In this document: positions 591 to 63,792 of the stretch, piece after piece
How positions within the stretch are numbered: position 1 is the first letter of the stretch
Layout of the letters: each line of letters begins with the position of its first letter
DNA from: an uncultured bacterium
Lineage (GTDB): Bacteria; Bacteroidota; Bacteroidia; Bacteroidales; CAIWKO01
DNA length: 64,000 nt
Assembly: GCA_903862465.1 (NCBI GenBank)
Contig: CAIOYH010000163.1
Location: 7,289 to 71,288 of the forward strand
Direction of reading: 5' to 3'
Position numbers and translations under genes: made by a program
Notes under the pieces: model-generated
The model's input: the letters and a program-made list of their open reading frames with translations, nothing else
Told to the model about the DNA's origin: nothing
The model's database searches: none

Positions 591-747
591 ATGTTGAGGT
601 GTGACATCTGTTTCGGGGATGTTAGTGCAGCGGGTAGTAATCTTTTTTAGGACTTACTGTTAGCAAGCTATCGTTTTTTTTTGTGCGTTAGATAGCGCAG
701 GTTACATGGATGAGTCCATTTATTTCCGATTTTGAATTCATGTTTTT

Positions 748-996
748 TAAGATTATATCGATATCTTTTAAGATTATATCGACATCTTTTAAGATTATAT
801 CGTCATCCTTTAAGAAGATATCGACATCTTTTAAGATTTCATCGACATCCATTAAGAAGATATCGACATCCTCTAAGATTATATCTACATCCTCTAAGAA
901 GATATCGACATCTTTTAAGATTATATCGACATCCTCTAAGAAGATATCGACATCTCTTAAGATTTCATTGACATCATCATAAAAGATAAGGACATC
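748..996. repeat. 21-bp tandem array #1, 11 full units plus a degenerate 12th (consensus TAAGATTATATCGACATCTTT)
   Basis: Unit starts counted at 748, 769, 790, ... 958, exactly 21 bp apart. Units alternate between AAGATTATATCG and AAGAAGATATCG variants. Confidence 0.95.
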
Positions 997-6198: not shown

Positions 6199-9100
6199 AT
6201 GAAAAAAATACTCTTAGGCGTAAGCCTTATTGTCCTAGCTATGTTTGGCAAAGCCCAAAATGGCTTGGAAAACGTTACAGTGGAAAAATACTACATTTCC
6301 AACGCTGCTGACGCGGCAGGAAGTGTCGGTCATGGCACCCTTCCCGTAGGTTCTATCACGTATAGAATTTATGCTGATATGCTCCCCGGTTATAAATTTC
6401 AAATGGCGTATGGTAACGCAAACCATAACCTGATTATGACCACTTCTACTACATTCTATAACAGCACTGATTATGGTCAAACGACTCCAACTAATACAAA
6501 AACCAACGTTGCTAAATGGACCACCATGTTAGATTCATGGTTATCTGTAGGCGGTGCTTGTAATGGAAATTTAGGTATTATGAAATCAGAAGATAATGGT
6601 GTGAACAATGTTGTGAACGCTCAAGGATTGTTAGCCAACACGGCTGCTTTGATGGGAATTCCTTTGACAACCCAAGATGGACTGATTGCAGGCACACCTG
6701 AATCTGTTACTTTTGTTGGTTTCACCACTCAAGCTGATGTTTTTGGTGATGGTACAGCTAATGGAAGTTCATTTACTTTGAACAACCAAGCTTGGTCATC
6801 CTTAAACGGATCAACAGGCGCCACAGCTAACAACAGAGTTTTGATTGCTCAAATTACTACTGATGGTGTTTTTCATTATGAATTAAACATTCAAATTGGA
6901 ACCCCAACAGGCGGCGTTGAAGTGTATGTTTCAAGTAGCCCACAAACTCCTAACGGAAATGGTCAAAATGAAATAACGATTCCTTCTTTAACAGGAACTC
7001 TTAACGTAGCTCCATCGGTAAGCATTACTGCTCCAACCAATAACACCCATTCAATCACCGGTGATGTTGTTGCTATCAATGCAACGGCTGCTGATGCTGA
7101 TGGCACTGTTACTCAAGTTGAATTCTTTGTGGATGGCGTTTCTAAAGGAATTGATAACACAGCTCCTTATACTGTTAATTATACAGGCGTAACAGGCACA
7201 CATACGTTGACAGCCGTGGCTACCGACAATGATGGTTTGACCAAAACTTCAGATCCTATCACACTTATCGTTGCTCCTAACCAAGCTCCAACCATAAGCA
7301 TCACATCACCATCAAATGGTGCTAACTTCATCACAGGTGCTGTTGTTGCTATTGCTGCTACGGCTGCTGATGCTGACGGAACAGTTACTTCTGTTGAGTT
7401 TTTTGTTGACGGTGCTTCTATAGGCGTTGATAACACAGCTCCTTATACAGCAAATTACACAAGCATTTTAGGACCTCATACCTTAACAGCTAAAGCTACT
7501 GACGATCGTAGTGCTCAAACCACTTCATCAACAATATCCATTAGTGTGTTGAACAATGTTCCTCCAACCGTTAGCTTAACAGCTCCATCAAATGGTTCAT
7601 CTGTTACAGCTCCTACCGCAGTAACTATCAATGCTACCGCTGCTGATGCTGATGGCTCTGTTACCAAAGTAGAATTCTACGTAAATGGTACTTTAATAGG
7701 TGAAGATCTAAGCGCTCCTTATTCTTTTGTTTGGACAAGCGTTGTTGGCACAGCCAATATCACCGCAAAAGCTACTGACAATGGTGGTGCATTCACCACA
7801 TCTTCTACCGTTACTATCTCTGTTTTAGATCCATTTGCTTTACCTTACAAAGTGGGTTCGGTTAGCAGTTCATGTGCCGCATCAACATTCACCCTGCCTT
7901 TCATCGCTGTGGATTCTGTTCACAACGTAATTGGTTATGACTTGGTTTTAAATTATAACATCAATAAAATAACTCCAACCGGCATCGTTACCAAAGTTGG
8001 TGATTTAGTAAATGCTAATTACTTTGATATTACCAAATATATCAACCCTGTTGCAGGAACTATCAACATCACTTTATCTTTAAATGGTAGTGCTCCCGTA
8101 GGAACTTATTTTCATGGCGTGGGTAACTTGTTTACGATAAGCTTTAATAAAGCAGGTGGTTTCAACAATGTTGATACCGCTACCGTTAGCGTTACAGGAT
8201 TACAAGAAAGTTATATTACAGGTGTTTCTACTAAATTAGCGGAATCAGGAAAATATATTTCTTACAAAGATAATATCTTCAATGGTACCTTGCAATTTTG
8301 GAATGCTTACGATCCTATCCAATATAATGTTGCCAATCCAAATCAATATTTGATTACCAATATTTATGGAACAAATGGTGCATGCGTTGCTTCTCCAACA
8401 GCAGTTCAACCTAACACATCAGGTGTTTTCAACTATGACATCAACAATGGTCAATTTATCTCCATTAAAAGAGACATTTTACCTACTGTTGATATGATGT
8501 CGGTTTTGAATGCAGGTACGGATGTTTTTCTTGCTAAAAAAGTAGTTACTTCAAATCCAACTTTCATTCCTAACGTATATCAAATGATTGCTATGGATGT
8601 TAACATGGATGGCGTTGTTAGTGCCGGCGATGTTTCTCAATTAAGCCAAAGAATTGTATTGGCAATTCCTGAATTCAAACAAGCTTGGAATTATAGTGTT
8701 GGTGGTGTTTCGGATGGTCGCCCTTCCAAAGATTGGGAATTCGTGGATTTAACCACAGTGACCAACAATGCTGCTTATCAAATTTCAACTACCTATCCTG
8801 CCAATGATGGCGTTGGATTCTCCAAATCACATGTGCCTTCAGTTGCTTTCTGTTTGGAGCCTCCCGTGTTAGATTACAACACATGTCCACAAATCACCAA
8901 CGAAACCTACGAAGGTATCTTATTGGGAGATGTTGACGGAAGTTATAAAAACATTGCTGCTGATGGTCTGTTGAAAGAAGGCTTACAATTGGCAACCGAC
9001 ACCGTTATGTTTGATTTGGCTCATGCCATTTATTCCGGTGGTGATGTTAGTGTGCCTGTTTCTATGATTACCAACACTGTTGTTAATGGTATAGATTTCG

Positions 9101-9627
9101 CAACAAAATATAATGAAAACATGTTGACTTACGATTCTACTTTTGACCAAACCGGTTACTTAGATGCGTATTCTTATTTCAACACAAACGACAGAACTAT
9201 CCGTTTCTCGGCTACAAATATCTCAGGTGGAAACATCCAAGCCGGTGTAACTTTAGTGTTAGTTCGTTTCCATAATTTAGATGGAACTATGGTTCCTGCT
9301 TACTTAGATTCAGTTAGAGCTTACATCAATGGTAGCCCTGCTATCATCAAATTGACTTCGCCTACAGTAGGTATAGCAACCAACAAAGCTGAACGCAACG
9401 TTACTGTTTATCCAAATCCAACGACTAATATTTTGAATGTGATTGTTTCTGAAGATTCAAAATTGGAAATGCTTGATTTGAATGGCAAAGTGGTTGTTGC
9501 TGAAACCAATGTGAATGCAAAACAACATCAAGTGATTGATGTTACTTCTCTCGCCAATGGCGTATATATGCTAAAAGTGTATAACGACAAGTATGTGAAA
9601 ATGCAAAAAGTTGTTATTAATAGATAA
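6199..9627 (+). CDS. Scaffoldin-like surface protein: three Ig-like repeats, two cohesin-like modules, an internal dockerin-like loop and a T9SS type-A sorting domain
   Basis: Signal peptide MKKILLGVSLIVLAMFGKAQ. Three ~91-aa Ig-like repeats (ITAP.N......G..V.I.ATAADADGTVT.VEFFVDG...G.DNTAPY) lie at about 7018-7840. The cohesin-like segments are STFTLPFIAVDSVHNVIGYDLVLNYNINKITPTG..GTINITLS..GNLFTISFNK (about 7840-8230) and GGDVSVPVSMITNTVVNGIDFATKYNENMLTYDS (about 8998-9360). DVNMDGVVSAGDVSQLSQRIV is at about 8587-8660. The C-terminus reads VTVYPNPTTNILNV...GVYMLKVYNDKYVKMQKVVINR. Confidence 0.85.
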   Translation: MKKILLGVSLIVLAMFGKAQNGLENVTVEKYYISNAADAAGSVGHGTLPVGSITYRIYADMLPGYKFQMAYGNANHNLIMTTSTTFYNSTDYGQTTPTNTKTNVAKWTTMLDSWLSVGGACNGNLGIMKSEDNGVNNVVNAQGLLANTAALMGIPLTTQDGLIAGTPESVTFVGFTTQADVFGDGTANGSSFTLNNQAWSSLNGSTGATANNRVLIAQITTDGVFHYELNIQIGTPTGGVEVYVSSSPQTPNGNGQNEITIPSLTGTLNVAPSVSITAPTNNTHSITGDVVAINATAADADGTVTQVEFFVDGVSKGIDNTAPYTVNYTGVTGTHTLTAVATDNDGLTKTSDPITLIVAPNQAPTISITSPSNGANFITGAVVAIAATAADADGTVTSVEFFVDGASIGVDNTAPYTANYTSILGPHTLTAKATDDRSAQTTSSTISISVLNNVPPTVSLTAPSNGSSVTAPTAVTINATAADADGSVTKVEFYVNGTLIGEDLSAPYSFVWTSVVGTANITAKATDNGGAFTTSSTVTISVLDPFALPYKVGSVSSSCAASTFTLPFIAVDSVHNVIGYDLVLNYNINKITPTGIVTKVGDLVNANYFDITKYINPVAGTINITLSLNGSAPVGTYFHGVGNLFTISFNKAGGFNNVDTATVSVTGLQESYITGVSTKLAESGKYISYKDNIFNGTLQFWNAYDPIQYNVANPNQYLITNIYGTNGACVASPTAVQPNTSGVFNYDINNGQFISIKRDILPTVDMMSVLNAGTDVFLAKKVVTSNPTFIPNVYQMIAMDVNMDGVVSAGDVSQLSQRIVLAIPEFKQAWNYSVGGVSDGRPSKDWEFVDLTTVTNNAAYQISTTYPANDGVGFSKSHVPSVAFCLEPPVLDYNTCPQITNETYEGILLGDVDGSYKNIAADGLLKEGLQLATDTVMFDLAHAIYSGGDVSVPVSMITNTVVNGIDFATKYNENMLTYDSTFDQTGYLDAYSYFNTNDRTIRFSATNISGGNIQAGVTLVLVRFHNLDGTMVPAYLDSVRAYINGSPAIIKLTSPTVGIATNKAERNVTVYPNPTTNILNVIVSEDSKLEMLDLNGKVVVAETNVNAKQHQVIDVTSLANGVYMLKVYNDKYVKMQKVVINR

Positions 9628-11486: not shown

Positions 11487-11820
11487 TTAGGCTTCGGCAA
11501 GCAACTTAGGGGCTTCGGAGAGAGACTCAGAGGCTACTTCGAACGACTTAGTGGCTGTGGAGAGCGAATTAGAAGCTTCGGAGAGCGAATTAGCGACTGT
11601 GGCGAACGACTTAGCTGCTAAGGATAGAGAATTAGCGACTGCATCGAACGACTTAAAGGCTTAGGCGAGAGAATTAGCGACTGCGGCGAGAGAATAAGAG
11701 GCTGAGGAGAGAGAATCAGAGGCTGCGGCGAACGACTTAGGGGCTTCGGAGGGAGAATCAGAGGCTTCGGAGAGCGAATTAGAGGCTTCGGAGAGCGAAT
11801 TAGGGGAAGAATTGCCCTCC
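11487..11820. repeat. 21-bp tandem array #2, 16 units (consensus TTAGAGGCTTCGGAGAGCGAA)
   Basis: Unit starts at 11506, 11527, ... 11800, 21 bp apart; the first unit is 19 bp. Two interleaved unit subtypes end in GAGAGCGAA or CGAACGAC. Confidence 0.95.
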
Positions 11821-11933: not shown

Positions 11934-12548
11934 ATGAACACAATTAAATACAGTTATTCAAAACTAGCCCAAGGCACTTTTCTCGAAAAACTTGGCTTTA
12001 TTATTTTTTCATGTACCGACAACGTCAACTTCCCCACATTGGTCGTAACTGTTGCTCTTATTATTGCCAAAAAAGAAGCATACGAAGAGCAATTAGACAA
12101 GTCGAAAGCGGGAGATCATCAAGCCACCACCTTGGCTCGGAAATACAGAAAAGAATTGGAGTTGATGTTGAAAAAGAATGGAATCTACATCAATTTTACT
12201 GCCGATGGAGACATAACAAAGTTAATTTCTAGCGGTTATGATTTGGCTAAAATTCCGGTAAGAACACCTCGTCCGGAAATAGAAATATTGCCATCGTCGC
12301 AACGCGGTGTAGCAAAAGTTATCATTCAAAAAGGTGAAAAGGATGTTGCTTATCAAGTGGAAACACATGCCGACCCCATTCCACCTTTGCCTGCCGACCA
12401 ACGTTGGCAACGGCAACCTATGTGTACAAGACATTATCAATCCATTTCGGGGATTCCTGTTGACACAAATATGTGGTTACGCTATTATACGGTTTCTCCT
12501 GATGGCGAAATCGGACCAAAAGGACCCTTTAAATTCAAAATTTTATAA
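11934..12548 (+). CDS. Hypothetical protein: helical N-terminal part plus Fn3/Ig-like C-terminal domain (paralog of 49772..50434)
   Basis: ATG 11934 (MNTIKYSYSKL); the track start is the upstream GTG 11865. It shares an architecture with 49772..50434: ..SSGYDLAK / ..RNGYGVGK, then a Pro-containing linker, then beta-rich G.VAK.I..K..K.Y.V. Confidence 0.65.
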   Translation: MNTIKYSYSKLAQGTFLEKLGFIIFSCTDNVNFPTLVVTVALIIAKKEAYEEQLDKSKAGDHQATTLARKYRKELELMLKKNGIYINFTADGDITKLISSGYDLAKIPVRTPRPEIEILPSSQRGVAKVIIQKGEKDVAYQVETHADPIPPLPADQRWQRQPMCTRHYQSISGIPVDTNMWLRYYTVSPDGEIGPKGPFKFKIL

Positions 12549-13830: not shown

Positions 13831-16800
13831 ATGAAAAAGAATCTATTTGCATTCGTTTTATTGGTAACACTTTTTAGTGTTGCGAAATCATTCGGACAAA
13901 CCAACACACGGTTTAACGATGGTTATCTCACTGTTTACAAAGCCACCTCGGCTTCTGCACTAGCCAACACAGGAACCGCCATTGTGGCTGAAGAATACAA
14001 CACCACCACAACTACACAAGCGGCTCCCAATTATAGTGTTGCCATTCCAACAGCCACGGGAAACAAGCTTGTTGTTTCGGGCACTGCCACATCTTCGGGA
14101 GGCATGACGCGTTCCGAAAATGGCAGATATTTATTGATGCCGGGCTACAATGGTTTGATAGGCGATGCCAATTCCACCTTTACCACCAATGGCGCAGTCA
14201 GAACGATAAATGGAACCGGAACTGTGGGCGCAGGAATTGCGGCAAATGGTTTACTTTGGCTGTCCGCTAGTAATAATTTAAGAGGAGCTACAAGCGATGA
14301 TGGCACCAATTATTGGATTTCGGGCAATGGAGTTGGCATACAAACTTCCACAACAGGAAACCCAATAACCACAATTACAACAACTTCAACCAACAATCGC
14401 GATGTAGTCATTTATAATGGACAATTGTATTTTACTACCGGTGCCGGTTCGCAAGGAATTTATAGTGTTTCAACAGGGAAACCTATCACAATCGGACAAG
14501 TTTCAACCCGATTGTTTACTCCTTTAAATACCGATACCTATGCTTTTTCAATCAGCCCCGATGCCACTACCTTATATTATGTGGCTTCCACCGGAGGCGG
14601 CATTTATCGTTGCACCTATAACGGAACTACTTGGACCACCGGAACGCAAATCGTTAGCGGCGCGGGCTACACCGGCATTGCTGTGGATTGGTCGAATTAT
14701 GCTTTTAGTGCTGCGGCTGCCAATGGAGCTAGAATTTTTGCTTCCAATCCTTCCACTATCATTGCTGCAAACGACAACGGAACGGCGGTTACTACTACCA
14801 CAATTTTAAGAACCGAGCCTGCTCCAACCATGAATGCATTTCGACAAATTGCATTTTCGCCCATCAAACAAACCATTACCCTCGGTGCAAATACGCCAAA
14901 CGCTTCCAATTTGAGTCCTTCCACAAACAATAATGTTTTATTCCAATTCAATTTGAATGCCAATGAAGGAAATGCTACACTGAAAAAATTAATTCTAAAT
15001 CAATCGGGAACCGCCACCATAGGTACAGGTAATGACATCAGCAATTTTAAACTTATTGATGATGCTAATAACAATGGTATAGCCGATCCTGCCGAACTTG
15101 CTTCCCCTTTGGCTACAGGCACTGTCGCTTCTTCAAATATTACATTCAGTTCTATTGTTCTTTCATCCTATATAACTGAAGGTACAAGCAAAAACTTTAT
15201 TATGGTGGGAGATGTTTCAGCCTCTGCGCCTAATGGAGCAACTTTTGTTCCAAGTATTGTTTCCAACAAAACATTAAACGGAAACAATTATACCACCAAT
15301 GCAGTCAATGCGGGAAATAGTTGGGTAACGATTGGTGCAACACCACCAACAGGCAACACATTGACTATTGCAAGCTGCACAGCACTGAGTATTACATCTC
15401 AAGCTGTAAGTCCAACGGCAGTTTGCGAAGGCAGCGGCACAGCAAAAATCTATACACATCTGATCGGCACAGCACCTTTCACCTATCAATGGAAAGAGAA
15501 CAATGTTCCGATTTCCAATAATGCTACTTACAGTGGAGCTACCTCTGATACGCTGAAAATTACGAATCCAAGTCTGTCATTAAATGGGAATACCTATAAA
15601 TGTGTTGTTTCAAATTGTGCGGGAACAGATTCCACCAACAATCTTGCAACCTTGACTGTTATTGCAGCTCCAAGCCAACCCACCGCAAGCGCCACAGGGC
15701 AACCTACGTGTTCTGTTGCCACAGGAGCCATTACGGTTACTGCACCTACGGGAGTTGGAATCACCTACAGCATTGATGGAACAACATACACCAACACCAC
15801 GGGCATTTTCAATGATGTAGCTGCAGGAAATTATTATGTTACGGTTAAGAATTCTGACAACTGTCCTTCACCTCAATCACCTCAGATAACCATCAATGCC
15901 CAACCGCAGACACCTGCCGCTCCAACAGTTAGTGTAACCGAACCTACATGTTCTTCTGCAAATGGAAATGTAGCCGTAACATCAACCACAACAGGCTTGA
16001 CCTTTAGTAACGATGGCGTAAACTATGCAGGGTATGCTTCACCATTTGTTTATGCAGCGAATGCCACCTATAGTATTACGGCTCAAAACACAAATGGATG
16101 TATCTCTTCGGCAGCTATCGGAACCTTAGCAGCTCAACCACAAACTCCATCTGCTCCGTCAGTAAGTGTAACACAACCAACCTGTGCATCTTCAAATGGA
16201 ACAGTAGCCATAACATCTTCCACAACGGGATTAACGTTCAGTACTGATAGTACAAACTATGCCGCATATACTTCCCCATTTGTGGTTGCTGCCAATGCCG
16301 CCTATAGCATCAAAGCAAGGAATGCAAGCGGATGTATATCCACCGCAGTTGCAGGAACCATGGGTGCTCAACCACAAACTCCTGCTGTTCCTTCAGTAAG
16401 CCTAACCCAACCAACTTGTTCATCTGCTACAGGAACCATAGCGATAACATCTTCTACAATAGGATTAACTTTTACTACCGATAGTGCGAATTTTGCTGCA
16501 TACGTTGCCCCATTTACCTTTGCAGCCAATGCAGCCTATAGTATCATGGCAAGAAATGCTGATGGATGTGTTTCAACAGCTACAACAGGCACAATGAATG
16601 CTCAACCGCAAACACCTGCTTCGCCTTCCGTAAGCCTTACCCAACCTACTTGTTCATCTGCCACCGGATCGGTAGCGATAACTTCTACCACAACGGGATT
16701 AACTTTCAGCACGGATGGTATTAACTATGAAGTGTATGCTTCACCTTTTGTTGTTTCATCCGGTGCAGCCTACAGCATCACGGCAAGAAATGCCGATGGA

Positions 16801-18036
16801 TGTACCTCATTGGCAACCGTAGGAACCATGGGAGTTCAACCCTCTACACCCAATACTCCTTCAGTAAACGTAACGCCACCTACTTGTTCATCTGCCACCG
16901 GAACTGTAGCGATAACTTCTTCCACCACAGGATTAACTTTCAGCACCGATGGAACAAACTACGCAGCATACAGTTCTCCGTATGTTGTTGCTGCCAATGC
17001 AGCCTATAGCATCACTGCGAGAAATGGCAACGGATGTGTATCAACAGCCGTAACGGGAACCATGGGTGCTCAACCACAGACTCCTGCAGCTCCAACGGTA
17101 AGTGTTACCCAACCTACCTTTGTTTCTGCCACCGGATTTGTTACTATAACATCTTCCACCACCGATTTAACCTTCAGCACGAATGGAATCAACTATGCTG
17201 CTTATGTTGCTCCTTACGAATTTGCTGCAAGTGCAGCGTATAGCATCACTGCAAGAAATCTTGCCGGATGTGTATCTGTTGCAACCACAGGCACCCTGAA
17301 TGCGCAACCTCAAAACCAAACTCCTCCATCGGTTAGTATTACGTCTCCGGCAAATGCCTCCGTGTTTGATGTTTCGGATACCATTCATATAGTTGTTGAT
17401 GCTGTGGCTAATGGTGGAAATATTGTTCATGTTGATTTTTTAATGGGTGATGTTTCTATAGGAACAGACTCTATTGCTCCTTATACCAAGAATATTATTA
17501 CGACGCCGGGAGTACATACCCTAAAGGCGATAGCTTATGACAATCATCTATTGTCAGATACGTCTGTAGCGGTAAACATTGTTGCAAACAATATAAAACA
17601 TCCGGTTGTCACGATTAATGCTCCAATTAATATCTATTTATTATACCTTGACGGAGATTCTATAACGGTTTCGACAAGCACATTTGGTGCTGCAGGCATT
17701 GCCTTCTTGGAATTCTTTATTGATAATGTTTCATTTGGCACAGACAATACGTTTCCGTATGCTAAAAAATTCTTGGGCGACTTCGGCTCTCATGCCATAA
17801 CTGCAAAAGTACATGATTTATTAGGTGGAGTATATACTTCTCCTGCGGCTAATTTATTTGTGAAGTTTAAACCATCCGATTTCAACAATGATGCAGTGAT
17901 TGATATTAATGATTATTCAATGTTTGTTGGTAGCTTTGGACAATCATGCAATTGTATGCAGGATTTAAACAGAGATGGCGTGGTAAATATAAACGACTTC
18001 TCCATATTTGTTGGCACTTTCGGTCAACATCATTAA
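13831..18036 (+). CDS. Giant secreted multi-repeat protein ending in a two-segment dockerin-like module
   Basis: Signal peptide MKKNLFAFVLLVTLFSVAKSFGQ. The ~520-aa N-terminal module is paralogous to that of 18316..22992. An Ig I-set-like domain (FTYQWKENNVPISNN..YKCVVSNCAG) follows. Then come seven ~78-aa repeats (PQTP..P.VS.TQPTCSS..G.VAITSSTTGLTFS.DG.NY..Y..PF...A.AAYSI.ARN..GC.S), two Ig-like domains, and the C-terminus DFNNDAVIDINDYSMFVGSFGQ..DLNRDGVVNINDFSIFVGTFGQ. Confidence 0.9.
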   Translation: MKKNLFAFVLLVTLFSVAKSFGQTNTRFNDGYLTVYKATSASALANTGTAIVAEEYNTTTTTQAAPNYSVAIPTATGNKLVVSGTATSSGGMTRSENGRYLLMPGYNGLIGDANSTFTTNGAVRTINGTGTVGAGIAANGLLWLSASNNLRGATSDDGTNYWISGNGVGIQTSTTGNPITTITTTSTNNRDVVIYNGQLYFTTGAGSQGIYSVSTGKPITIGQVSTRLFTPLNTDTYAFSISPDATTLYYVASTGGGIYRCTYNGTTWTTGTQIVSGAGYTGIAVDWSNYAFSAAAANGARIFASNPSTIIAANDNGTAVTTTTILRTEPAPTMNAFRQIAFSPIKQTITLGANTPNASNLSPSTNNNVLFQFNLNANEGNATLKKLILNQSGTATIGTGNDISNFKLIDDANNNGIADPAELASPLATGTVASSNITFSSIVLSSYITEGTSKNFIMVGDVSASAPNGATFVPSIVSNKTLNGNNYTTNAVNAGNSWVTIGATPPTGNTLTIASCTALSITSQAVSPTAVCEGSGTAKIYTHLIGTAPFTYQWKENNVPISNNATYSGATSDTLKITNPSLSLNGNTYKCVVSNCAGTDSTNNLATLTVIAAPSQPTASATGQPTCSVATGAITVTAPTGVGITYSIDGTTYTNTTGIFNDVAAGNYYVTVKNSDNCPSPQSPQITINAQPQTPAAPTVSVTEPTCSSANGNVAVTSTTTGLTFSNDGVNYAGYASPFVYAANATYSITAQNTNGCISSAAIGTLAAQPQTPSAPSVSVTQPTCASSNGTVAITSSTTGLTFSTDSTNYAAYTSPFVVAANAAYSIKARNASGCISTAVAGTMGAQPQTPAVPSVSLTQPTCSSATGTIAITSSTIGLTFTTDSANFAAYVAPFTFAANAAYSIMARNADGCVSTATTGTMNAQPQTPASPSVSLTQPTCSSATGSVAITSTTTGLTFSTDGINYEVYASPFVVSSGAAYSITARNADGCTSLATVGTMGVQPSTPNTPSVNVTPPTCSSATGTVAITSSTTGLTFSTDGTNYAAYSSPYVVAANAAYSITARNGNGCVSTAVTGTMGAQPQTPAAPTVSVTQPTFVSATGFVTITSSTTDLTFSTNGINYAAYVAPYEFAASAAYSITARNLAGCVSVATTGTLNAQPQNQTPPSVSITSPANASVFDVSDTIHIVVDAVANGGNIVHVDFLMGDVSIGTDSIAPYTKNIITTPGVHTLKAIAYDNHLLSDTSVAVNIVANNIKHPVVTINAPINIYLLYLDGDSITVSTSTFGAAGIAFLEFFIDNVSFGTDNTFPYAKKFLGDFGSHAITAKVHDLLGGVYTSPAANLFVKFKPSDFNNDAVIDINDYSMFVGSFGQSCNCMQDLNRDGVVNINDFSIFVGTFGQHH
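15904..17307 (+). repeat. Six in-frame 234-bp tandem repeats inside the gene (a more divergent unit precedes them from about 15670)
   Basis: PQTP-encoding unit starts at 15904, 16138, 16372, 16606, 16840 and 17074, each 234 bp apart. Confidence 0.9.
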
Positions 18037-25329: not shown

Positions 25330-27406
25330 TTGAATAAAAAAGAAAAATCGGAATTACTAAATAGAGAAGTTAGTTGGCTGTATTTCAATGGTAGGGTGTT
25401 GCAAGAAGCAGCAGACTCACGAAATCCATTGATAGAGCGACTTAGATTTCTTGGCATTTTTTCGAACAATAGAGACGAGTTTTTTCGTGTGCGTGTGGCT
25501 ACCTTGACGCGTTTGTTGAAAATACAGCAAACGCAGGAAGCAGGTTTGGCAGATCCCCGAAAAGTGTTAGACCAAATTGACGAAATTGTTAGTATCGAGG
25601 AAAAAGAATTTATGAAGACATATCATCAAATTCTTGAAGAGATGGCTTCTAAGAATTTGTTTATCATAAATGAAACGGAACTTTCTGCCGAGCAAGGCGT
25701 TTATCTGAAAAAATATTTTTTGGAAACCATTCGCCCCTGTCTTTTTCCGATAATGATTAGCAATTTGAAAGATATTTCGACCCTGCGCGACAGGTCAATA
25801 TATTTGGCGGTGAGTTTGCGCAGGAAAAGCAGGTTGATGAAGGAAGAATATGCGCTGATTGAGTTGCCCACCAAAACTATTTCGAGGTTTTGTATTTTGC
25901 CCACCGAGGGCGATAAAAAATTTGTGATTCTATTGGACGATATCGTGCGTTATTGTTTGTCGGATATATTTTCTGTTTTCGGGTGGGATGCTTTTAGCGC
26001 CTATACGGTGAAAATTACCTTGGATGCTGAGATTGATATTGATACCGATGTGTCGAAAAGCTTTTTGGAAACCATGACCGAAAGCCTGAAACAACGAAAG
26101 AAAGGAAATCCGGTGCGGTTTGTTTATGACAAAGACATGCCAATCGCGCTGTTAAAAACCTTAACCAAGCTGTTGAAGATTCGTAAAGAAGATCCCATCA
26201 GAGGTGGTGGCAGGTATCATAATTTTAAAGATTTTATGCACTTTCCCAATTTGGATCATCCCGAATTGGAGTATCCTCCTTTGCCTCCTTTGCGCCATAA
26301 AGATTTGCCACCCAACAGAAGCATACTTGCTGCGATTCGAAAAAAGGACATCATGCTGCATTATCCGTATCAATCTTTTCAAATCATCATTGATATGTTG
26401 CGCGAAGCTTCTATTGACCCCAAAGTGCGCTCCATAAAAATGACTATTTATCGCGCAGCAAAAAATTCTGATGTGATTAATGCCTTGCTGAATGCTGCCC
26501 GAAATGATAAGAAAGTTACAGTTTTCATGGAGCTGCAAGCACGATTTGATGAGCAAGCAAATATCTTTTGGACAGAACTTTTGCAGGAAGAAGGGGTGCG
26601 TGTCATACAAGGAATTCCCGGATTTAAGGTGCATAGCAAATTGATTTTGATTCGAAGCAAAGAGAATGAAAAAAACATCTTTTATGCCAACATCGGTACG
26701 GGGAATTTTAATGAAGATACGGCGCGTGTTTATGCCGATGATAGTTTGTTGACCTCCGACTCAAAGATTACTGCCGATGTGGCGAATGCCTTTAATCAAA
26801 TGGAAGCCAACTATCGTCCCATTAAATATAAATCTTTAGTGTTGGCGCCGTTCATGATGCGTAATACTTTCATGAAAATGATTTCGCATGAAATTCGAAA
26901 TGCAAAAGCCAATAAACCGGCATGGATTCTGATAAAATTAAACAATTTGGTTGACGAAACCATCATCCAAAAACTGTATAAAGCGAGTCAAGCAGGCGTG
27001 AAAAATCAATCTTATTGTCAGAGGTATTTGTGTGCTGAAACCCGGTGTGAAAGGTTTGAGCGATAATATAGAAGCCATTAGCATTGTTGACCGATTTTTG
27101 GAACACTCCCGTGTGCTTGTGTTTTGCAATGCAGGCAATCCTCACTATTTTATCACATCGGCTGATTGGATGATACGCAATTTCGACAACCGTATTGAGG
27201 TGGCGTGCCCCATTTATGACACGGATTTGCAAAAAGAACTCATGACGATGCTCCAAATTCAAATGGCTGATAATGTTAAAGCGCGAGATTTGAGCAGTAA
27301 AAAAATCAATGCGTATGCCAAATCATCAAAACGAATCATACACTCCCAATTAGAAATTTATAATTATTTTAAAACATCTCTTGAATCAGCAGAAACAGAA
27401 TCCTAA
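25330..27406 (+). pseudogene. ppk1: Polyphosphate kinase 1, frame broken by one extra A in the A5 run at 27001-27005 (fragments 25330..27066 and 27032..27406); probably a homopolymer sequencing error
   Basis: N-terminus LLNREVSWLYFNGRVLQEA, plus the PLD-like C-terminal domains. Deleting one A restores ..[44 protein letters not shown].., which matches my memory of the conserved PPK1 sequence. The restored length is 691 aa. The apparent start is a TTG, with no in-frame ATG nearby. Confidence 0.9.
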
Positions 27407-27941: not shown

Positions 27942-28844
27942 ATGTTATTTGCCTCTATTGATATCGGAACAAACGCTGTTCGTTTGTTATTTTCAAATGT
28001 TTATCTTCGCGATGAACAAATTTATGCTGAAAAAGCTTCCATCATACGCATCCCGATACGTTTGGGCGAAGATGTTTTTTCTATAAACTATATTTCTGAA
28101 GAGAAAATAGACCTTTTATTAAAAACCATGCGTGCCTTTAAACTGTTGATGGATGTTTACCGACCTCTTTCCTACATAGCCTGCGCCACTGCTGCCATGC
28201 GTGAAGCTTCCAATAGCGATGAGGTGGTCAGAAGAATTAAAGAAGAAGTGGGTATTGACATCAAGGTGATTAGCGGCAAGGAAGAAGCCGACATCGTTAC
28301 GGCAAGCAATCATGTGGTTTTGAAAGAGCCATTTAAGTACAAAATGTATGTGGATGTGGGCGGCGGAAGCACCGAAATTTCGCTTTTAAATCATCAAGGG
28401 CTTGTAGCATCAAAATCGTTTAAAATCGGAACCATTCGCTATTTAAAAAATAAAATAGATGAAAAGGAATGGGCAAAGATGCAAGATTGGTTGCTTGAAT
28501 TTAAAAAGGACTTTGGCAAGATTTATTTGGTGGGTTCGGGCGGCAACATCAACAAAATAACCAAAATGTATGGCAACAGAGATGCTTTTATGATTGAAAA
28601 GGAAGAGTTGATGAAAGCCTATGAGCAATTGAGCAAATTGACTTTAGCCGACCGCATCGAAATGTTGGGTTTGCGTCCCGATAGAGCCGATGTTATTGTG
28701 CCTGCGGCTATTATATTTATCAAAATAATGACTTGGATACGGACAGAAGTTGTGTATGTGCCTAAAATCGGATTGGCAGATGGATTGATTTATAAAGGTT
28801 ACTACGAATATCTTAAAAATAGTCCGGTTGAAAAATTCTTTTAA
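27942..28844 (+). CDS. ppx: Ppx/GppA-family exopolyphosphatase
   Basis: MLFASIDIGTNAVRLLF, ATAAMREASN and VDVGGGSTEISL are ASKHA/Ppx-GppA motifs. The start lies 1 nt after the preceding stop. Confidence 0.85.
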   Translation: MLFASIDIGTNAVRLLFSNVYLRDEQIYAEKASIIRIPIRLGEDVFSINYISEEKIDLLLKTMRAFKLLMDVYRPLSYIACATAAMREASNSDEVVRRIKEEVGIDIKVISGKEEADIVTASNHVVLKEPFKYKMYVDVGGGSTEISLLNHQGLVASKSFKIGTIRYLKNKIDEKEWAKMQDWLLEFKKDFGKIYLVGSGGNINKITKMYGNRDAFMIEKEELMKAYEQLSKLTLADRIEMLGLRPDRADVIVPAAIIFIKIMTWIRTEVVYVPKIGLADGLIYKGYYEYLKNSPVEKFF

Positions 28845-29088
28845 TGGCACCACATGGATTCACAGCTATTCTACAGCCGTGTGTAAACGAGATATGTTCG
28901 GTATCAACTCCGAAACGCATGTCATCGTGCGTGCTCAATTCATCATCAGCTACGATGCGCCTTGGATTGGACAATATCGAACACCGTGAATGTATCCTAT
29001 TGGCGGATTTCGTTCCTATTACATTAGATGTACAAAAACGAATATACGGAACGGCGAAAAACACATCGAAGGTAGCTAAAAGCATGCC

Positions 29089-29352
29089 GGCTACGCCTAG
29101 GACCACAATGGCGACGCCCAGGACCACAATAGCGACGCCCAGGACCACAATGGCGACGCCCAGGACCACAATGGCGACGCCCAGGACCACAATGGCTACG
29201 CCTAGGACCACAATGGCGACGCCTAGGACCACAATGGCGACGCCCAGGACCACAATGGCGACACCCAGGACCACAATGGCGACACCTAGGACCACAATGG
29301 CTACGCCTAGGACCACAATTGTTACGCCTAGGACAACAATTGCTTTAGCTAG
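29089..29352. repeat. 21-bp tandem array #3, 12 near-identical units plus a partial unit (consensus GGCGACGCCCAGGACCACAAT)
   Basis: Unit starts at 29089, 29110, ... 29320, exactly 21 bp apart, with only 1-3 substitutions per unit. The array is visibly more GC-rich than its flanks and sits between convergent genes. Confidence 0.95.
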
Positions 29353-29515
29353 TATGGTTTTGACGACCTCCGATAAAATCTTGTCAACTTTGAATCAATT
29401 GTTTATGCAATTGTGATTTATCACTTTTCTTGTTATAAAGTCGAAGAGAATGAATTGGAATATAATCTGAAAGAACTATATATCTGAAGATTTATTCAAC
29501 TTTCGGTATTCCATA

Positions 29516-35054: not shown

Positions 35055-35495
35055 AAAGAATATATATTATAAATTATGGTTGCAAAAGTAATAGCGCAAT
35101 ATTACTTACATATTAAGGGAATATTATTTCTGTATTAAGAAATGAAAGATAAATAAGACTTGTCAAAAACAATCCCTCTAAATTAGTTCAAACTACAAAA
35201 AGATAAAAATGATTTACAAAAGCCATGAAAATACAATTACCTCGTTATATCCTTTAGGCTATAAATCTTTTTCAAATCATTAGTAAACTGGTTCGACTTA
35301 ATACTTTCAAGGGCTACCTTATAGGAGATTCAGATTTTGCTTGATTGTTGAATTGTTTTCCTACTGTATTCGAATACGTATATTATGTTTACAGACATAA
35401 AAAAGCCAATGTCACAATATAATTATATCTAAATATCTATATAACAAATATATATAATTGTATTGCAACTATTCATGACACTATTTCAACTTAAA

Positions 35496-35767
35496 ATAAT
35501 GCTATATTTGGTAGAGATACCACTATGATTGGTTGAAATAGTGCTATATTAGGTAGGAATAGTGCTATATTTGGTGGGAATAGTGCTATGGCGGCTAGAG
35601 ATAGTGCTATGGCGGCTAGAGATAGTGCTATGACGACTAGAGATAGTGCTATGACGACCAGAGATATCGCTATGCCGGTTAGATATACTGCTATGGAGAG
35701 AAAAATAGTACTATATTTGGTAGAAATAGTGCTATGGCAACTTGAGATAGTGCAATGCCGTGCCGAA
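35496..35767. repeat. 21-bp tandem array #4, 13 units (consensus ATAGTGCTATGGCGGCTAGAG)
   Basis: Unit starts at 35496, 35517, ... 35685, then 35705 (one 20-bp unit), 35726 and 35747. The central units are near-identical and the outer ones degenerate. Confidence 0.95.
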
Positions 35768-35867
35768 ATTTTTAATTCATAGATATGAAATCTAAAAAAT
35801 TTCAACGTGTCATAATTAAATTTACATTATATTTTTTCAAAAATAATTTTCACATGAAAATATTTTG

Positions 35868-35875
35868 TACTTTTG
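35868..35875 (+). promoter_or_regulatory. Candidate -7 promoter box (TAnnTTTG) within the 13-mer gtacttttgttgc
   Basis: tacttttg lies 24 bp upstream of ATG 35899. The 13-mer is identical to 13751-13763. Confidence 0.45.
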
Positions 35876-49771: not shown

Positions 49772-50434
49772 ATGACAGATATTAATACAGATATCTCAGT
49801 TGCTGCAGTGCAATTAGTTTCAAAGAGACCGGTGCATGTTGCAGACAACATTACAATTTTTAGTACTACTTTAGATAAATTGGAAAGCAGCGGCGACAAT
49901 CTTGTTAAGCCTGCTGACATGATTATTTATCGTGGTAACGTCACCACCTTAAGCACCTGTCAAGATGATATGAGAGGTGGTGCTGACGATAAAAAACCCA
50001 AGAGAGACAAAGCTTATAGCGTATGTTTTGGCGACAACCGGACGAATATGCTTAAAGTTGAAGGAGCCTTGATTGGCATACCTAACCCTATGGATAAGGA
50101 AGCCCTAATCTTGAGAAATGGTTATGGAGTGGGAAAAGAACATGGTCCGATATCCAATCCGGATATTAGCATAAAAAATAAGAAAAACCAACCGGGCACT
50201 GTTGTTGCTAAAATAAAAAGCCCTAGCAAGACCAAATCGTATTCTGTTGATTGGCAAAGCAGCACAGATAATGGTGAGACATGGACACCCCATAATTCTA
50301 CTCCTGTTTGTAAACGGGAACTAAAAAACATGCCTTTAGCTTCACAACTGATAGTGCGCGCTAGAATTACGATTGGAAGCAACGACCCTGAAGGTTGGAA
50401 AGTTTCTAGTACTTTAGTAGTAGGAGCAGTATAG
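49772..50434 (+). CDS. Hypothetical protein with an Fn3/Ig-like C-terminal domain (paralog of 11934..12548)
   Basis: Same layout as 11934..12548: helical N-terminal half, RNGYGVGK, then PGTVVAKIKSPSKTKSYSVDWQSSTDNGETW.. No signal peptide. Confidence 0.65.
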   Translation: MTDINTDISVAAVQLVSKRPVHVADNITIFSTTLDKLESSGDNLVKPADMIIYRGNVTTLSTCQDDMRGGADDKKPKRDKAYSVCFGDNRTNMLKVEGALIGIPNPMDKEALILRNGYGVGKEHGPISNPDISIKNKKNQPGTVVAKIKSPSKTKSYSVDWQSSTDNGETWTPHNSTPVCKRELKNMPLASQLIVRARITIGSNDPEGWKVSSTLVVGAV

Positions 50435-50522
50435 CAGCTTCATCGCTCTGTTTAACTTCTTAGATATAATTGTGGTAGGTGTTTCATAACGCGAAACACT
50501 TTCTTCCAATTATGGAAGAGCC

Positions 50523-50669
50523 GATTCCGTTCATGACGGGGAAGATTCCATTCGTGACGGAGCAGATTCCGTTCATGACGGGGAAGATTCCGTTCATGAC
50601 GGAGCAGATTCCATTAACGACGGAGCTGATTCCATCAACGACGGAGCTGATTCCATTCGTGACGGAGTA
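50523..50669. repeat. 21-bp tandem array #5, 7 units (consensus GATTCCGTTCATGACGGRGMA)
   Basis: Unit starts at 50523, 50544, ... 50649, 21 bp apart. Each unit contains the dyad ccgt-N5-acgg. Confidence 0.95.
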
Positions 50670-62387: not shown

Positions 62388-63512
62388 TTATTTACAATAT
62401 TGCTTCAGTTTCGCTTCCGCAAATTTGCTGCCCAACTCCGCCGCTTTTTTCCAATCGGCGCAGGCTCCGGGGAGGTCTTTCGCCGTATATTTCACATCCG
62501 CACGTTTCGTGTAGGCGCTCACATAGCTCGGATTTAGCTCTATCGCTTTCGTGAAATCCTCCAACGCCCCCGCCGTTTTACCCCCTTGTTCCTTACACAA
62601 AGCACGATTGAAATACGCTTTCGAATCTCCCGAATGCTTCAACAAAAATATCGTGTAGTCGCTCTCCGCATCCTCAAATTTCTTCATCTCATAACGCGTC
62701 AAACCTCTATTGTAATACGCATCCACATAATCTTTTTGTTTCGTGATAACCGTCGTGTAATCCGCCTCGGCGCTCACAAAATCCTTCATTTCAAACTCCG
62801 TGAACGCTTTGTTGTAATAGCTTTCCACATACGAAGGTTTAATCGCTATGGCGCTATCATAATCCTGCAACGCCTCCTTATATTTCTTCAGATGACTCTG
62901 CGCCATCCCGCGGCTGATATACGCGCGATAGTCCTTCGGCGCATTTTCAATCACGCGGTTGAAATCCCCTATCGCATCCTCATAATTACCCAAAATGCCA
63001 TACGCCATCCCGCGGTTATAATACGCATCATTATAATTCTTTTTCAGCGCTATCGCGTGCGTATAATCATCCACGGCGCCCGCATTGTCCTTCGCCAAAT
63101 ACTTAAGATAGCCCCTCGTGAAATACGCCCGTTCATTTTTGTTCGACAGGCGGATGGCGGTGTCGCAATCTGCCAACGCTTCCCTGTTTTTGTTCAGGTT
63201 CGTATAGGTGATGCCGCGGTTCGTATAAAACTCCGTCTCCTTATTGTTAAACTCTATCGCCGTATTGAAAAATTTCAGCGCCTCGCCGAAGTTCCCGATG
63301 GCATTATACGACAAAGCCTTGTAGAAATACGCATCCGCGAAATCCTTTTTCTGCCCTATCGTCTTGTCGAAATCCAGAATCGCATCCACAAAATACCCAT
63401 TTTTATACTTATCCAAACCCATCTTGAAACTCTCCATATAGGTTTGCCCCCAAGCGCTCCCCGTCATCAATCCCCACAACACAGCAAGGAAAATCGTTTT
63501 TTTCAACCGCAT
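62388..63512 (-). CDS. Secreted tetratricopeptide-repeat protein
   Basis: ATG 63512 gives MRLKKTIFLAVLWGLMTGSAWGQ. About nine TPR units (A..DY..AI...P.Y..AYYNRG). The C-terminal cap is CADWKKAAELGSKFAEAKLKQYC. Confidence 0.85.
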   Translation of the reverse strand: MRLKKTIFLAVLWGLMTGSAWGQTYMESFKMGLDKYKNGYFVDAILDFDKTIGQKKDFADAYFYKALSYNAIGNFGEALKFFNTAIEFNNKETEFYTNRGITYTNLNKNREALADCDTAIRLSNKNERAYFTRGYLKYLAKDNAGAVDDYTHAIALKKNYNDAYYNRGMAYGILGNYEDAIGDFNRVIENAPKDYRAYISRGMAQSHLKKYKEALQDYDSAIAIKPSYVESYYNKAFTEFEMKDFVSAEADYTTVITKQKDYVDAYYNRGLTRYEMKKFEDAESDYTIFLLKHSGDSKAYFNRALCKEQGGKTAGALEDFTKAIELNPSYVSAYTKRADVKYTAKDLPGACADWKKAAELGSKFAEAKLKQYCK

Positions 63513-63576
63513 AAATATTTTTTTGGCAAAGATAAACAACCTTGGGGAGATATACGACGTTTTCTTATGCTAAATC

Positions 63577-63792
63577 CCAAATACCAAGAACCAAATTCCA
63601 AATTCCAAAACCCAAATACCAAAACCCAAATACCAAATACCAAAAATTAAAACCCGCCCCCATATTCGTAACCTGTCCCGTACATGAAATGTCGGGATTC
63701 GCCCATTCGTAACCTGTCCCGTACATGAAATGTCGGGGTTCGTAGAGTGCAATCCTTGGAATTTGGATCTTGGATCTTGGAACTTGGATCTT
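63577..63792. repeat. Composite repeat: 10 tandem heptamers (CCAARNN), two 33-bp direct repeats, then about 5.5 heptamers in inverted orientation
   Basis: The left arm at 63577-63646 is 70 bp, exactly 10 units. DR1 at 63664-63696 and DR2 at 63705-63737 both read attcgtaacctgtcccgtacatgaaatgtcggg. The right arm at 63754-63792 is (TGGAWYT)n, the complement of the left-arm heptamer. Confidence 0.85.

Follow-up and report, generated by a model that had tools for sequence, protein, structure and literature searches.

A 13-unit array of 21-bp direct repeats upstream of a T9SS cargo gene promoter, one of a class of period-21 arrays in a clade of freshwater Bacteroidales

Promoter-proximal tandem repeats of variable length are exemplified by the 7-bp repeats before hmw1A and hmw2A of H. 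influenzae, and direct repeats of 17-22 bp, set about two helical turns apart and bound by protein, make up plasmid and phage iterons and centromere-like arrays. AGAT repeats lie in the leader of uspA2 of M. catarrhalis, according to work cited in PMC4679880, and TAACTGA heptamer direct repeats are abundant and intergenic in Beggiatoaceae, Cyanobacteria and a few Bacteroidetes (PMC4679880). Regulators of the LytTR family bind direct repeats of 9-10 bp placed 11-13 bp apart, a period of 21-22 bp, and the repeats have little sequence conservation across systems (PMC2766830, PMC6193735); the known operators are pairs lying 4-11 bp from the -35 (PMC6193735). The literature that we searched has nothing on tandem repeats of 21 bp, be it in Bacteroidetes or in the vicinity of T9SS genes, and does not describe arrays of the kind reported here, the closest published systems being LytTR operators, the promoter repeats of pathogens and the TAACTGA heptamers (PMC4679880).

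We found that, in the window (the whole 64-kb stretch of DNA that was analysed), the promoter of a T9SS cargo gene is preceded by an array of 21-bp units (Table 1). A preliminary description of this DNA had reported 13 such units upstream of the promoter, and three methods bear this out: a scan for the core resolves 13 head-to-tail units, Tandem Repeats Finder run on the window returns a period of 21 with 11.6 copies (35494-35736), and an in-register repeat search recovers nine copies at 21-nt spacing. Units 1-10 run from 35495 and three further units occupy 35704-35766, with unit 10 shortened to 20 nt by the loss of one nucleotide at about 35703. Seven copies of the 10-mer ATAGTGCTAT are present in the window, every one within the array, compared to an expectation of 0.11 from shuffled sequence (0 of 100 shuffles reach seven). 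As had been described, the central units are almost identical and the edges decay: units 5-8 read GATAGTGCTATG[G/A]CG[G/A]C[T/C]AGA, and the edge units are degraded. Type I units (AATAGTGCTATATTTGGTAGA) stand at the left end of the array and as unit 11, and type II units (GATAGTGCTATGRCGRCYAGA) form its centre. The TAnnTTTG box and the ATG named earlier are both found in the sequence, and the sorting domain of the product upholds its assignment as T9SS-secreted. The -7 box lies 101 nt from the end of the last unit and 121 nt from the last core. The array is genuine, does not code for protein and belongs to the 5' regulatory region of the cargo gene, where, as at contingency loci, a tandem repeat stands next to a promoter.

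Table 1. Positions of the arrays, genes and promoter elements discussed in the text (window coordinates unless a locus is named)
Feature	Position	Strand	Remarks
Sibling array (array 1), 11 units, 42-bp super-period	745-975	+	Unrelated unit; 380 nt before the adhesin -7 box
CHU_C adhesin gene	1423-4053		GTACTTTTG box at 1356
Sibling array, 15 units	11489-11803	+	130 nt upstream of a 204-aa gene (11934-12548)
Period-21 array, 12 units, 93% identical	29089-29340	.	Between convergent genes
Leader, left of array	35427-35494	+	ATCTAAATATCTATATAACAAATAnATATAAT and following sequence; from left-flank alignment of window, L002, L058 and L036
Array, 13 x 21 bp	35495-35766	+	Conserved block AGA-R-ATAGTGCTAT-R and 6-nt spacer
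Array-promoter spacer	35767-35867	+	About 85-90% identity across window, L002 and L058
-7 promoter box TACTTTTG (TAnnTTTG)	35868-35875	+	Generic Bacteroidetes type
T9SS cargo gene, 287 aa	35899-36762	+	C-terminal Por_Secre_tail sorting domain, E 2.6e-18
Sibling array, 7 units	50518-50667	+	84 nt after a 220-aa gene (49772-50434); 62 nt before a TATCTTTG box
Period-21 array	63591-63655		Only array with a 7-nt sub-period
Longer cargo gene type	L058 1312-2367; L211 3074-4135; L212 8866-9924

Compared to the described systems, the locus is alike in some respects and distinct in others. As at hmw1A/hmw2A and uspA2, an array precedes a gene for a surface or secreted protein and varies in copy number from one strain or lineage to another, but the units there are 1-7 nt long and slip frequently enough for phase variation within a culture, whereas the unit here is 21 bp and the differences in length that we observed lie between lineages only, or between samples in the case of a sibling array. 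Iterons and centromere-like repeats have a period like that of the arrays here, which however occur many to a chromosome and have no rep or par gene or origin context. The TAACTGA repeats are likewise lineage-restricted, abundant, intergenic and mostly 5' of genes, but they consist of one 7-nt sequence across loci, placed a few nt before start codons (PMC4679880), whereas the arrays here have a period of 21 nt and a unit peculiar to each locus, and the array at 35495 lies upstream of the promoter.

The preliminary description had also drawn a parallel between this locus and array 1. The layout is indeed the same in that array 1 (745-975) is followed by a GTACTTTTG box (1356) and an adhesin gene (1423), although the gap there is about 380 nt. 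The box, however, is no signature common to both arrays, because it is a generic Bacteroidetes -7 element: TAnnTTTG occurs within 150 nt upstream of 24 of the 40 genes in the window, and the box also stands before three genes that have no array. Nor is a shared logic particular to T9SS cargo supported; period-21 arrays of the clade also flank genes for FN3-like proteins of 204-255 aa and a gene for a DNA methyltransferase.

We then compared 55 units from four related arrays, those of the window and of the loci L002, L058 and L036. No unit departs from ATA at positions 2-4 or from AT at positions 10-11; positions 8, 9 and 20 hardly vary, and positions 1 and 12 are two-state. The consensus units of the four arrays differ only at positions 13 and 15-18, all inside the 6-nt block 13-18, and by our own hypergeometric arithmetic the chance that five differing positions all fall in one such block is 6/20349, or about 3e-4. 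The spacers are uniform inside each array and different among arrays while the core is fixed, leaving a constrained block of 15 nt, AGA-R-ATAGTGCTAT-R, with the near-palindrome ATAG-NN-CTAT at its centre. Since all consensus differences lie in the 6-nt spacer, the constraint acts on nucleotides, and because the core stays fixed while the spacers diverge, we infer purifying selection on a motif of about 15 nt. Twenty-one base pairs amount to two helical turns, which places the sites on one face of the DNA, and the pattern is the one that a putative protein-binding site repeated every two helical turns would be expected to produce.

This constraint bears directly on a coding reading of the array, in which the units would encode a short peptide of heptad repeats, [N/D]-S-A-M-x-x-R if read on the + strand and I-A-L-S-L-A-A if read on the - strand; we regard this as most improbable. 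An open + frame spans the entire array in L002, where it gives 85 aa from an ATG, in L036, where it gives 172 aa from an ATG, and in L058; gene callers predict such ORFs at sibling arrays, and the variable block 13-18 corresponds to codons 5-6 of that frame. However, four of the six frames of the unit are without stops, so that long ORFs arise automatically, and by our own estimate about four of six open frames are expected by chance for any 21-mer of such base composition. We rejected the heptad-peptide gene on three counts. First, conservation of the ORF is lacking: the window's [N/D]SAMxxR frame is stopped by a TAA just ahead of the array and again by a TGA in unit 2 and is shifted by a 1-nt deletion, L058 has no start codon upstream of its array, and none of the frames stays intact behind a start codon across the four related arrays. 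Second, codon periodicity is absent, with entropies of 5.5/4.8/4.5 by codon position. Third, synonymous sites are invariant where freedom would be expected of a gene, with a T in 54 of the 55 units at position 9 (the four-fold degenerate third base of GCT) and a single base in all 55 at position 3 (the third base of the [G/A]AT codon), whereas the common unit variants are all non-synonymous (N/D, S/R, R/G, A/T).

Orthologues of the cargo protein are found in freshwater Bacteroidales MAGs (L001, L002, L003 and L210) at 59-75% identity, and L002, with 75% protein identity, has the same leader, units (8-9 copies), spacer and promoter. A metagenome scan of 241 million records for two cores 21 bp apart recovered L058 and L036; many further matches to the 21-spaced core were unrelated coding heptads (N-S-A/T-I) of other organisms and were set aside. 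L058 has 15 units, a spacer and promoter as in the window, and a downstream 545-aa gene 91% identical to the window's. L036 has 19-20 units and a conserved leader but an unrelated right flank, with neither promoter nor cargo gene after the array, which adjoins an FN3-like gene and a CHASE-PAS kinase gene. The related arrays thus differ by whole units (8-9, 13, 15 and 19-20), the kind of difference that the preliminary description had suggested looking for at orthologous loci. The leader ATCTAAATATCTATATAACAAATAnATATAAT is kept beside all four arrays of the family, including L036 at its unrelated locus. In the window, L002 and L058 alike, the last core stands exactly 121 nt from the -7 box; L058 keeps this distance via two 1-nt indels that cancel, and both the conserved spacer and the exact distance hold in L058 despite a different cargo gene body.

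In the more distant relatives L001, L003, L210, L211 and L212 there is no array at the same locus, and the gene order is dnaK, cargo gene, 545-aa gene, the cargo gene following dnaK after 80-190 nt. Because these relatives have the same cargo gene without the array, the array would be dispensable for expression. Upstream of the leader all four array loci differ, and the leader side is a break in gene order. Taken with the array-less relatives, this break indicates a derived insertion, and array and leader were inserted upstream of the cargo promoter in one sub-lineage.

An insertion of this kind raises the question of a modular mobile or duplicative element, like pneumococcal BOX, in which a conserved leader and variable units are copied between intergenic sites. 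The same leader and array do occur both at the cargo locus and at L036, which are unrelated loci, and every copy lies at a gene-order break on its leader side. Yet these are the only two loci found in the 241 million metagenome records, the core occurs nowhere else in the 64-kb window, and we saw neither terminal inverted repeats nor target duplications nor a transposase, which makes such an element quite improbable. A phage or plasmid origin was rejected: no viral relatives turned up, neither the 204-aa protein family nor the LytTR protein discussed below has relatives in viral contigs, and the viral-contig scan gave three isolated single matches for the 21-spaced core pattern of the array at 35495 and only chance single matches for a 15-base pattern of array 1. 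A REP-like hairpin, CTACCGATATTTyrTCCCTwCGGGA, is found near arrays in L036 (2450-2580) and L058 (2940-2990), with none in the window.

Two alternative cargo gene bodies occur at the locus, one of 284-287 aa (window, L001, L002, L003 and L210) and one of 351-353 aa (L058, L211 and L212). What the two types share is limited to the C-terminal sorting domain and, at the other end, the promoter and start region; their alternation suggests cassette replacement by recombination.

We also considered whether the array might act as RNA. In such a case a + strand transcript, arising from the TATATTTG boxes of type I units or from an upstream promoter, would contain AUAGUGCUAU cores that pair or bind protein and affect stability, termination or translation; we consider this improbable. 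The + strand of the array folds with a z of -4.6 compared to shuffles and -2.5 compared to column-permuted arrays (L002 -3.5), and the - strand has no excess folding, a strand asymmetry attributable to a core that as RNA can pair with itself only by way of G.U pairs. TAnnTTTG boxes in the + direction are present in type I units (three in the window, three in L002 and one in L058), and the TAACTGA heptamer repeats in 5' leaders offer a published analogue (PMC4679880). At the sibling array 11489-11803, the only + strand -7-like boxes of the 204-aa gene lie upstream of the array, with none between array and gene, and because these nearest boxes precede it that array may be transcribed as a 5' leader. 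However, at the array under study a strong proximal promoter (35868) lies downstream, and the internal boxes are without a -33 TTTG at the right distance. Moreover, Rfam 15 gives no match over the array even at E<=1, covariation is absent, and a common L036 variant, ATAGGGCTAT, breaks the self-pairing. Nor is the excess structure common to other arrays, with the A2/L218 family less structured than the null. A universal RNA structure was accordingly rejected, as the + strand excess is confined to the family of the array at 35495 and other arrays have none or have it on the opposite strand.

In all, the clade has at least 17 period-21 arrays, the one at 35495 among them, with units that are mostly unrelated. 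Besides it the window contains the five others of Table 1, and the relatives L001-L004 contribute five more; across the window and these relatives (122 kb) the tandem repeats are dominated by period 21 and by 42 and 63, which are multiples of it, while 258 kb of more distant Bacteroidota (L005-L024) contain no period-21 array. Fifteen of 16 arrays are intergenic between divergent or co-directional genes, i.e. on the 5' side of a gene. Two possible links among the arrays were sought and rejected: no leader or flank is common to arrays with different units among the window arrays compared, and no 7-nt sub-period exists within the 21-bp units except at 63591-63655. The array at 29089-29340, with entropies of 3.8/0/0.4 by codon position, varies at one codon position and may be a coding heptad, either ATPRTTM in ORF 28844-29416 (+) or IVVLGVA (-). 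In L004 a 10-unit array (8930-9190) is bordered on both sides by its own unit in inverted orientation, forming perfect palindromes at the edges, and at L211 6874-7045 units of 20 and 21 bp alternate in a 41-bp super-period, the sole departure from an exact 21-bp period.

Arrays of this class persist beside homologous genes while their units change. All homologues of the 204-aa protein with DNA on file have a period-21 array upstream, at protein identities of 25-91%. L218 (91% identity) has the unit family seen at 11489-11803, with 13.7 units compared to 15 in the window; L214/L215 (44%) have the unit ACAAAGAATCTCTTCAAAGTG in 13 copies with a 63-bp super-period; and L003 (25%, E 9e-15) has the unit CTTTTTGATTCACCAAGGAAC in an array at 1689-1869, so that unit sequence turns over completely among these loci. 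A homologue of the 220-aa protein (44% identity) has a period-21 array 76 nt downstream, with a unit 62% identical in register to the window's by our own consensus count. The promoter after the 220-aa-gene array is conserved, but it drives a gene for a 751-aa DNA methyltransferase at one locus and a gene for a 237-aa secreted protein at the other, and the pattern of array, promoter and variable gene therefore recurs. Length change by whole units is seen here between samples, as L222 has 13.7 and L221 has 11.6 units, exactly two units apart with flanks otherwise identical, and a different sibling array is identical in two samples of one strain (L219). The 204-aa protein is predicted to be a three-helix bundle plus FN3 (pLDDT 68, with all top fold matches FN3), and the 204-, 220- and 255-aa proteins give only weak collinear matches to one another in hhalign (E 5e-4 to 0.03, probability at most 33%).

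These patterns of gain, loss and retention must be weighed for a neutral or selfish minisatellite, a lineage prone to 21-bp intergenic tandem duplications in which the array is tolerated and has no role. Rapid gain and loss are as such a process predicts: the array is absent at the locus in L001, L003, L210, L211 and L212, and L001 has an array after coaD where the window has none. Copy number varies, unit sequences are unrelated among arrays, the L036 copy has no downstream gene, and a homogeneous centre with decayed edges can be the product of unequal exchange alone. However, an invariant core with a diverging spacer is unexpected under neutral concerted evolution, the promoter spacing of 121 nt is exact even across compensating indels, arrays are kept beside homologous genes down to 25-44% protein identity, and 15 of 16 arrays lie on the 5' side of genes. 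We therefore hold a functionless minisatellite to be a serious rival to a binding platform, though a doubtful one.

Evidence for a possible binding protein comes from the neighbourhood of other arrays. Stand-alone LytTR genes, scoring above the Pfam curated cut-off, flank three array families (L004, L218 and L221-223), in a sample that is biased because the loci were fetched for carrying array-adjacent genes. In L221-223 the order is LytTR gene, 216-aa gene, array (L221 3118-4622 and L222 2690-4236), in L004 it is LytTR gene, 255-aa gene, array (7686-9159), and in L218 (3-997) and the contig carrying P0071 it is LytTR gene, array, 204-aa gene. The searched literature contains no account of this module, in which a LytTR gene, an FN3-like gene and an array recur together. 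For the family of the array at 35495 itself, no LytTR or other regulator gene lies next to the array in the window, L002, L058 or L036, and tblastn with two LytTR queries found none in the 64-kb window. To our knowledge, no DNA-binding family other than LytTR has a site geometry that explains why the period is fixed at 21 bp while the unit is arbitrary.

The array at 35495 has the repeat geometry of LytTR sites, with a period of 21, a 10-nt core in a 15-nt block and a variable spacer. Like the arrays here, the operators of AgrA, ComE, SilA and HdrR/BrsR are direct repeats of 21-22-bp period upstream of promoters, and their motif differs between systems as the array units do. The differences are also clear. 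Those operators have two (rarely three) copies abutting the -35, whereas arrays in this clade have 7-20; the array at 35495, with 13 copies 121 nt from the -7 box, is not placed as a LytTR operator is, and we found no relation to a -33 TTTG. Its core is near-palindromic and in this resembles the site of a symmetric dimer more than a LytTR half-site. In LytTR Regulatory Systems the partner gene encodes a membrane inhibitor, whereas the partner here is predicted to be a soluble protein of three helices plus FN3.

On the combined evidence we tentatively read the array as a putative expanded direct-repeat binding platform that tunes the promoter. It would be a non-coding minisatellite of a multiplied protein-binding direct repeat, in which the 15-nt block AGA-R-ATAGTGCTAT-R is the candidate site, followed by a freely drifting 6-nt spacer, with every site on one side of the helix. 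The gene for its regulator would lie elsewhere in the genome, and this regulator, for which a LytTR-type protein or another direct-repeat binder would be the best candidate, may coat the array and modulate the downstream promoter; copy number would then set the strength of the effect, and slippage of units could give heritable tuning of expression. Two-copy operators of LytTR type (a 9-10 bp repeat plus an 11-13 bp spacer) may have been the seeds that slippage expanded, and if so, such seeding would account for the 21-bp period shared by arrays of unrelated sequence. Whole-unit length change, the fixed 121 nt, the constraint on the core and the 5' position all fit a cis-acting element. The earlier idea of a length-variable cis-regulatory element is thus supported in part, but not its T9SS framing or its shared box. 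Counting against a platform are the L036 copy, which has neither promoter nor cargo gene, and the relatives that have the same gene family and no array.

Intrinsic curvature was considered as a cause of the 21-bp period that would not depend on sequence, and was rejected, as a wedge model with approximate parameters predicts 5-6 degrees per type II unit, below the shuffled mean, and only one of the 13 units tested exceeds its shuffles.

Extended to the clade, the binding-platform reading would describe an operator class of about one array per 10 kb, with its own core in each family, persisting over long evolutionary times next to one gene family as units turn over, changing in length by whole units inside populations and including the LytTR/FN3/array module, from which the array at 35495 would have been recruited for copy-number-tunable transcription. 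We put this broader statement forward as doubtful. If the arrays are expanded operators, they link the fixed geometry of a 21-bp direct-repeat site with minisatellite instability, and copy number would tune how many regulator molecules occupy the site; if they are neutral, they amount to only a mutational quirk specific to the lineage. The arrays would also make variable-number markers for strain tracking in uncultured freshwater Bacteroidales. Short-read assemblies seem to break at period-21 arrays, as public contigs of P0071-P0079 with array-adjacent genes are often only 1-2 kb long and end at or near arrays; the arrays would then account for the breaks in metagenome assemblies of the clade at these loci.

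Other repeats in the window are of different kinds. Repeats of 231 bp and 234 bp (2410-3078 and 15897-17180) are coding domain repeats in T9SS adhesins and are unrelated to the 21-bp arrays. At 63572-63792, upstream of a gene on the - strand (62388-63512), heptamer arrays (AAATACC x10 and CTTGGAT x5) flank two 41-bp units (63664-63742), and heptamer arrays are also present in L210 and L214. Separately from the repeats, the polyphosphate kinase gene looks split, as ORF 25330-27066 stops in C-terminal domain 2 and the overlapping ORF 27032-27406 continues it, and the gene (25330-27406) may be frameshifted or a pseudogene.
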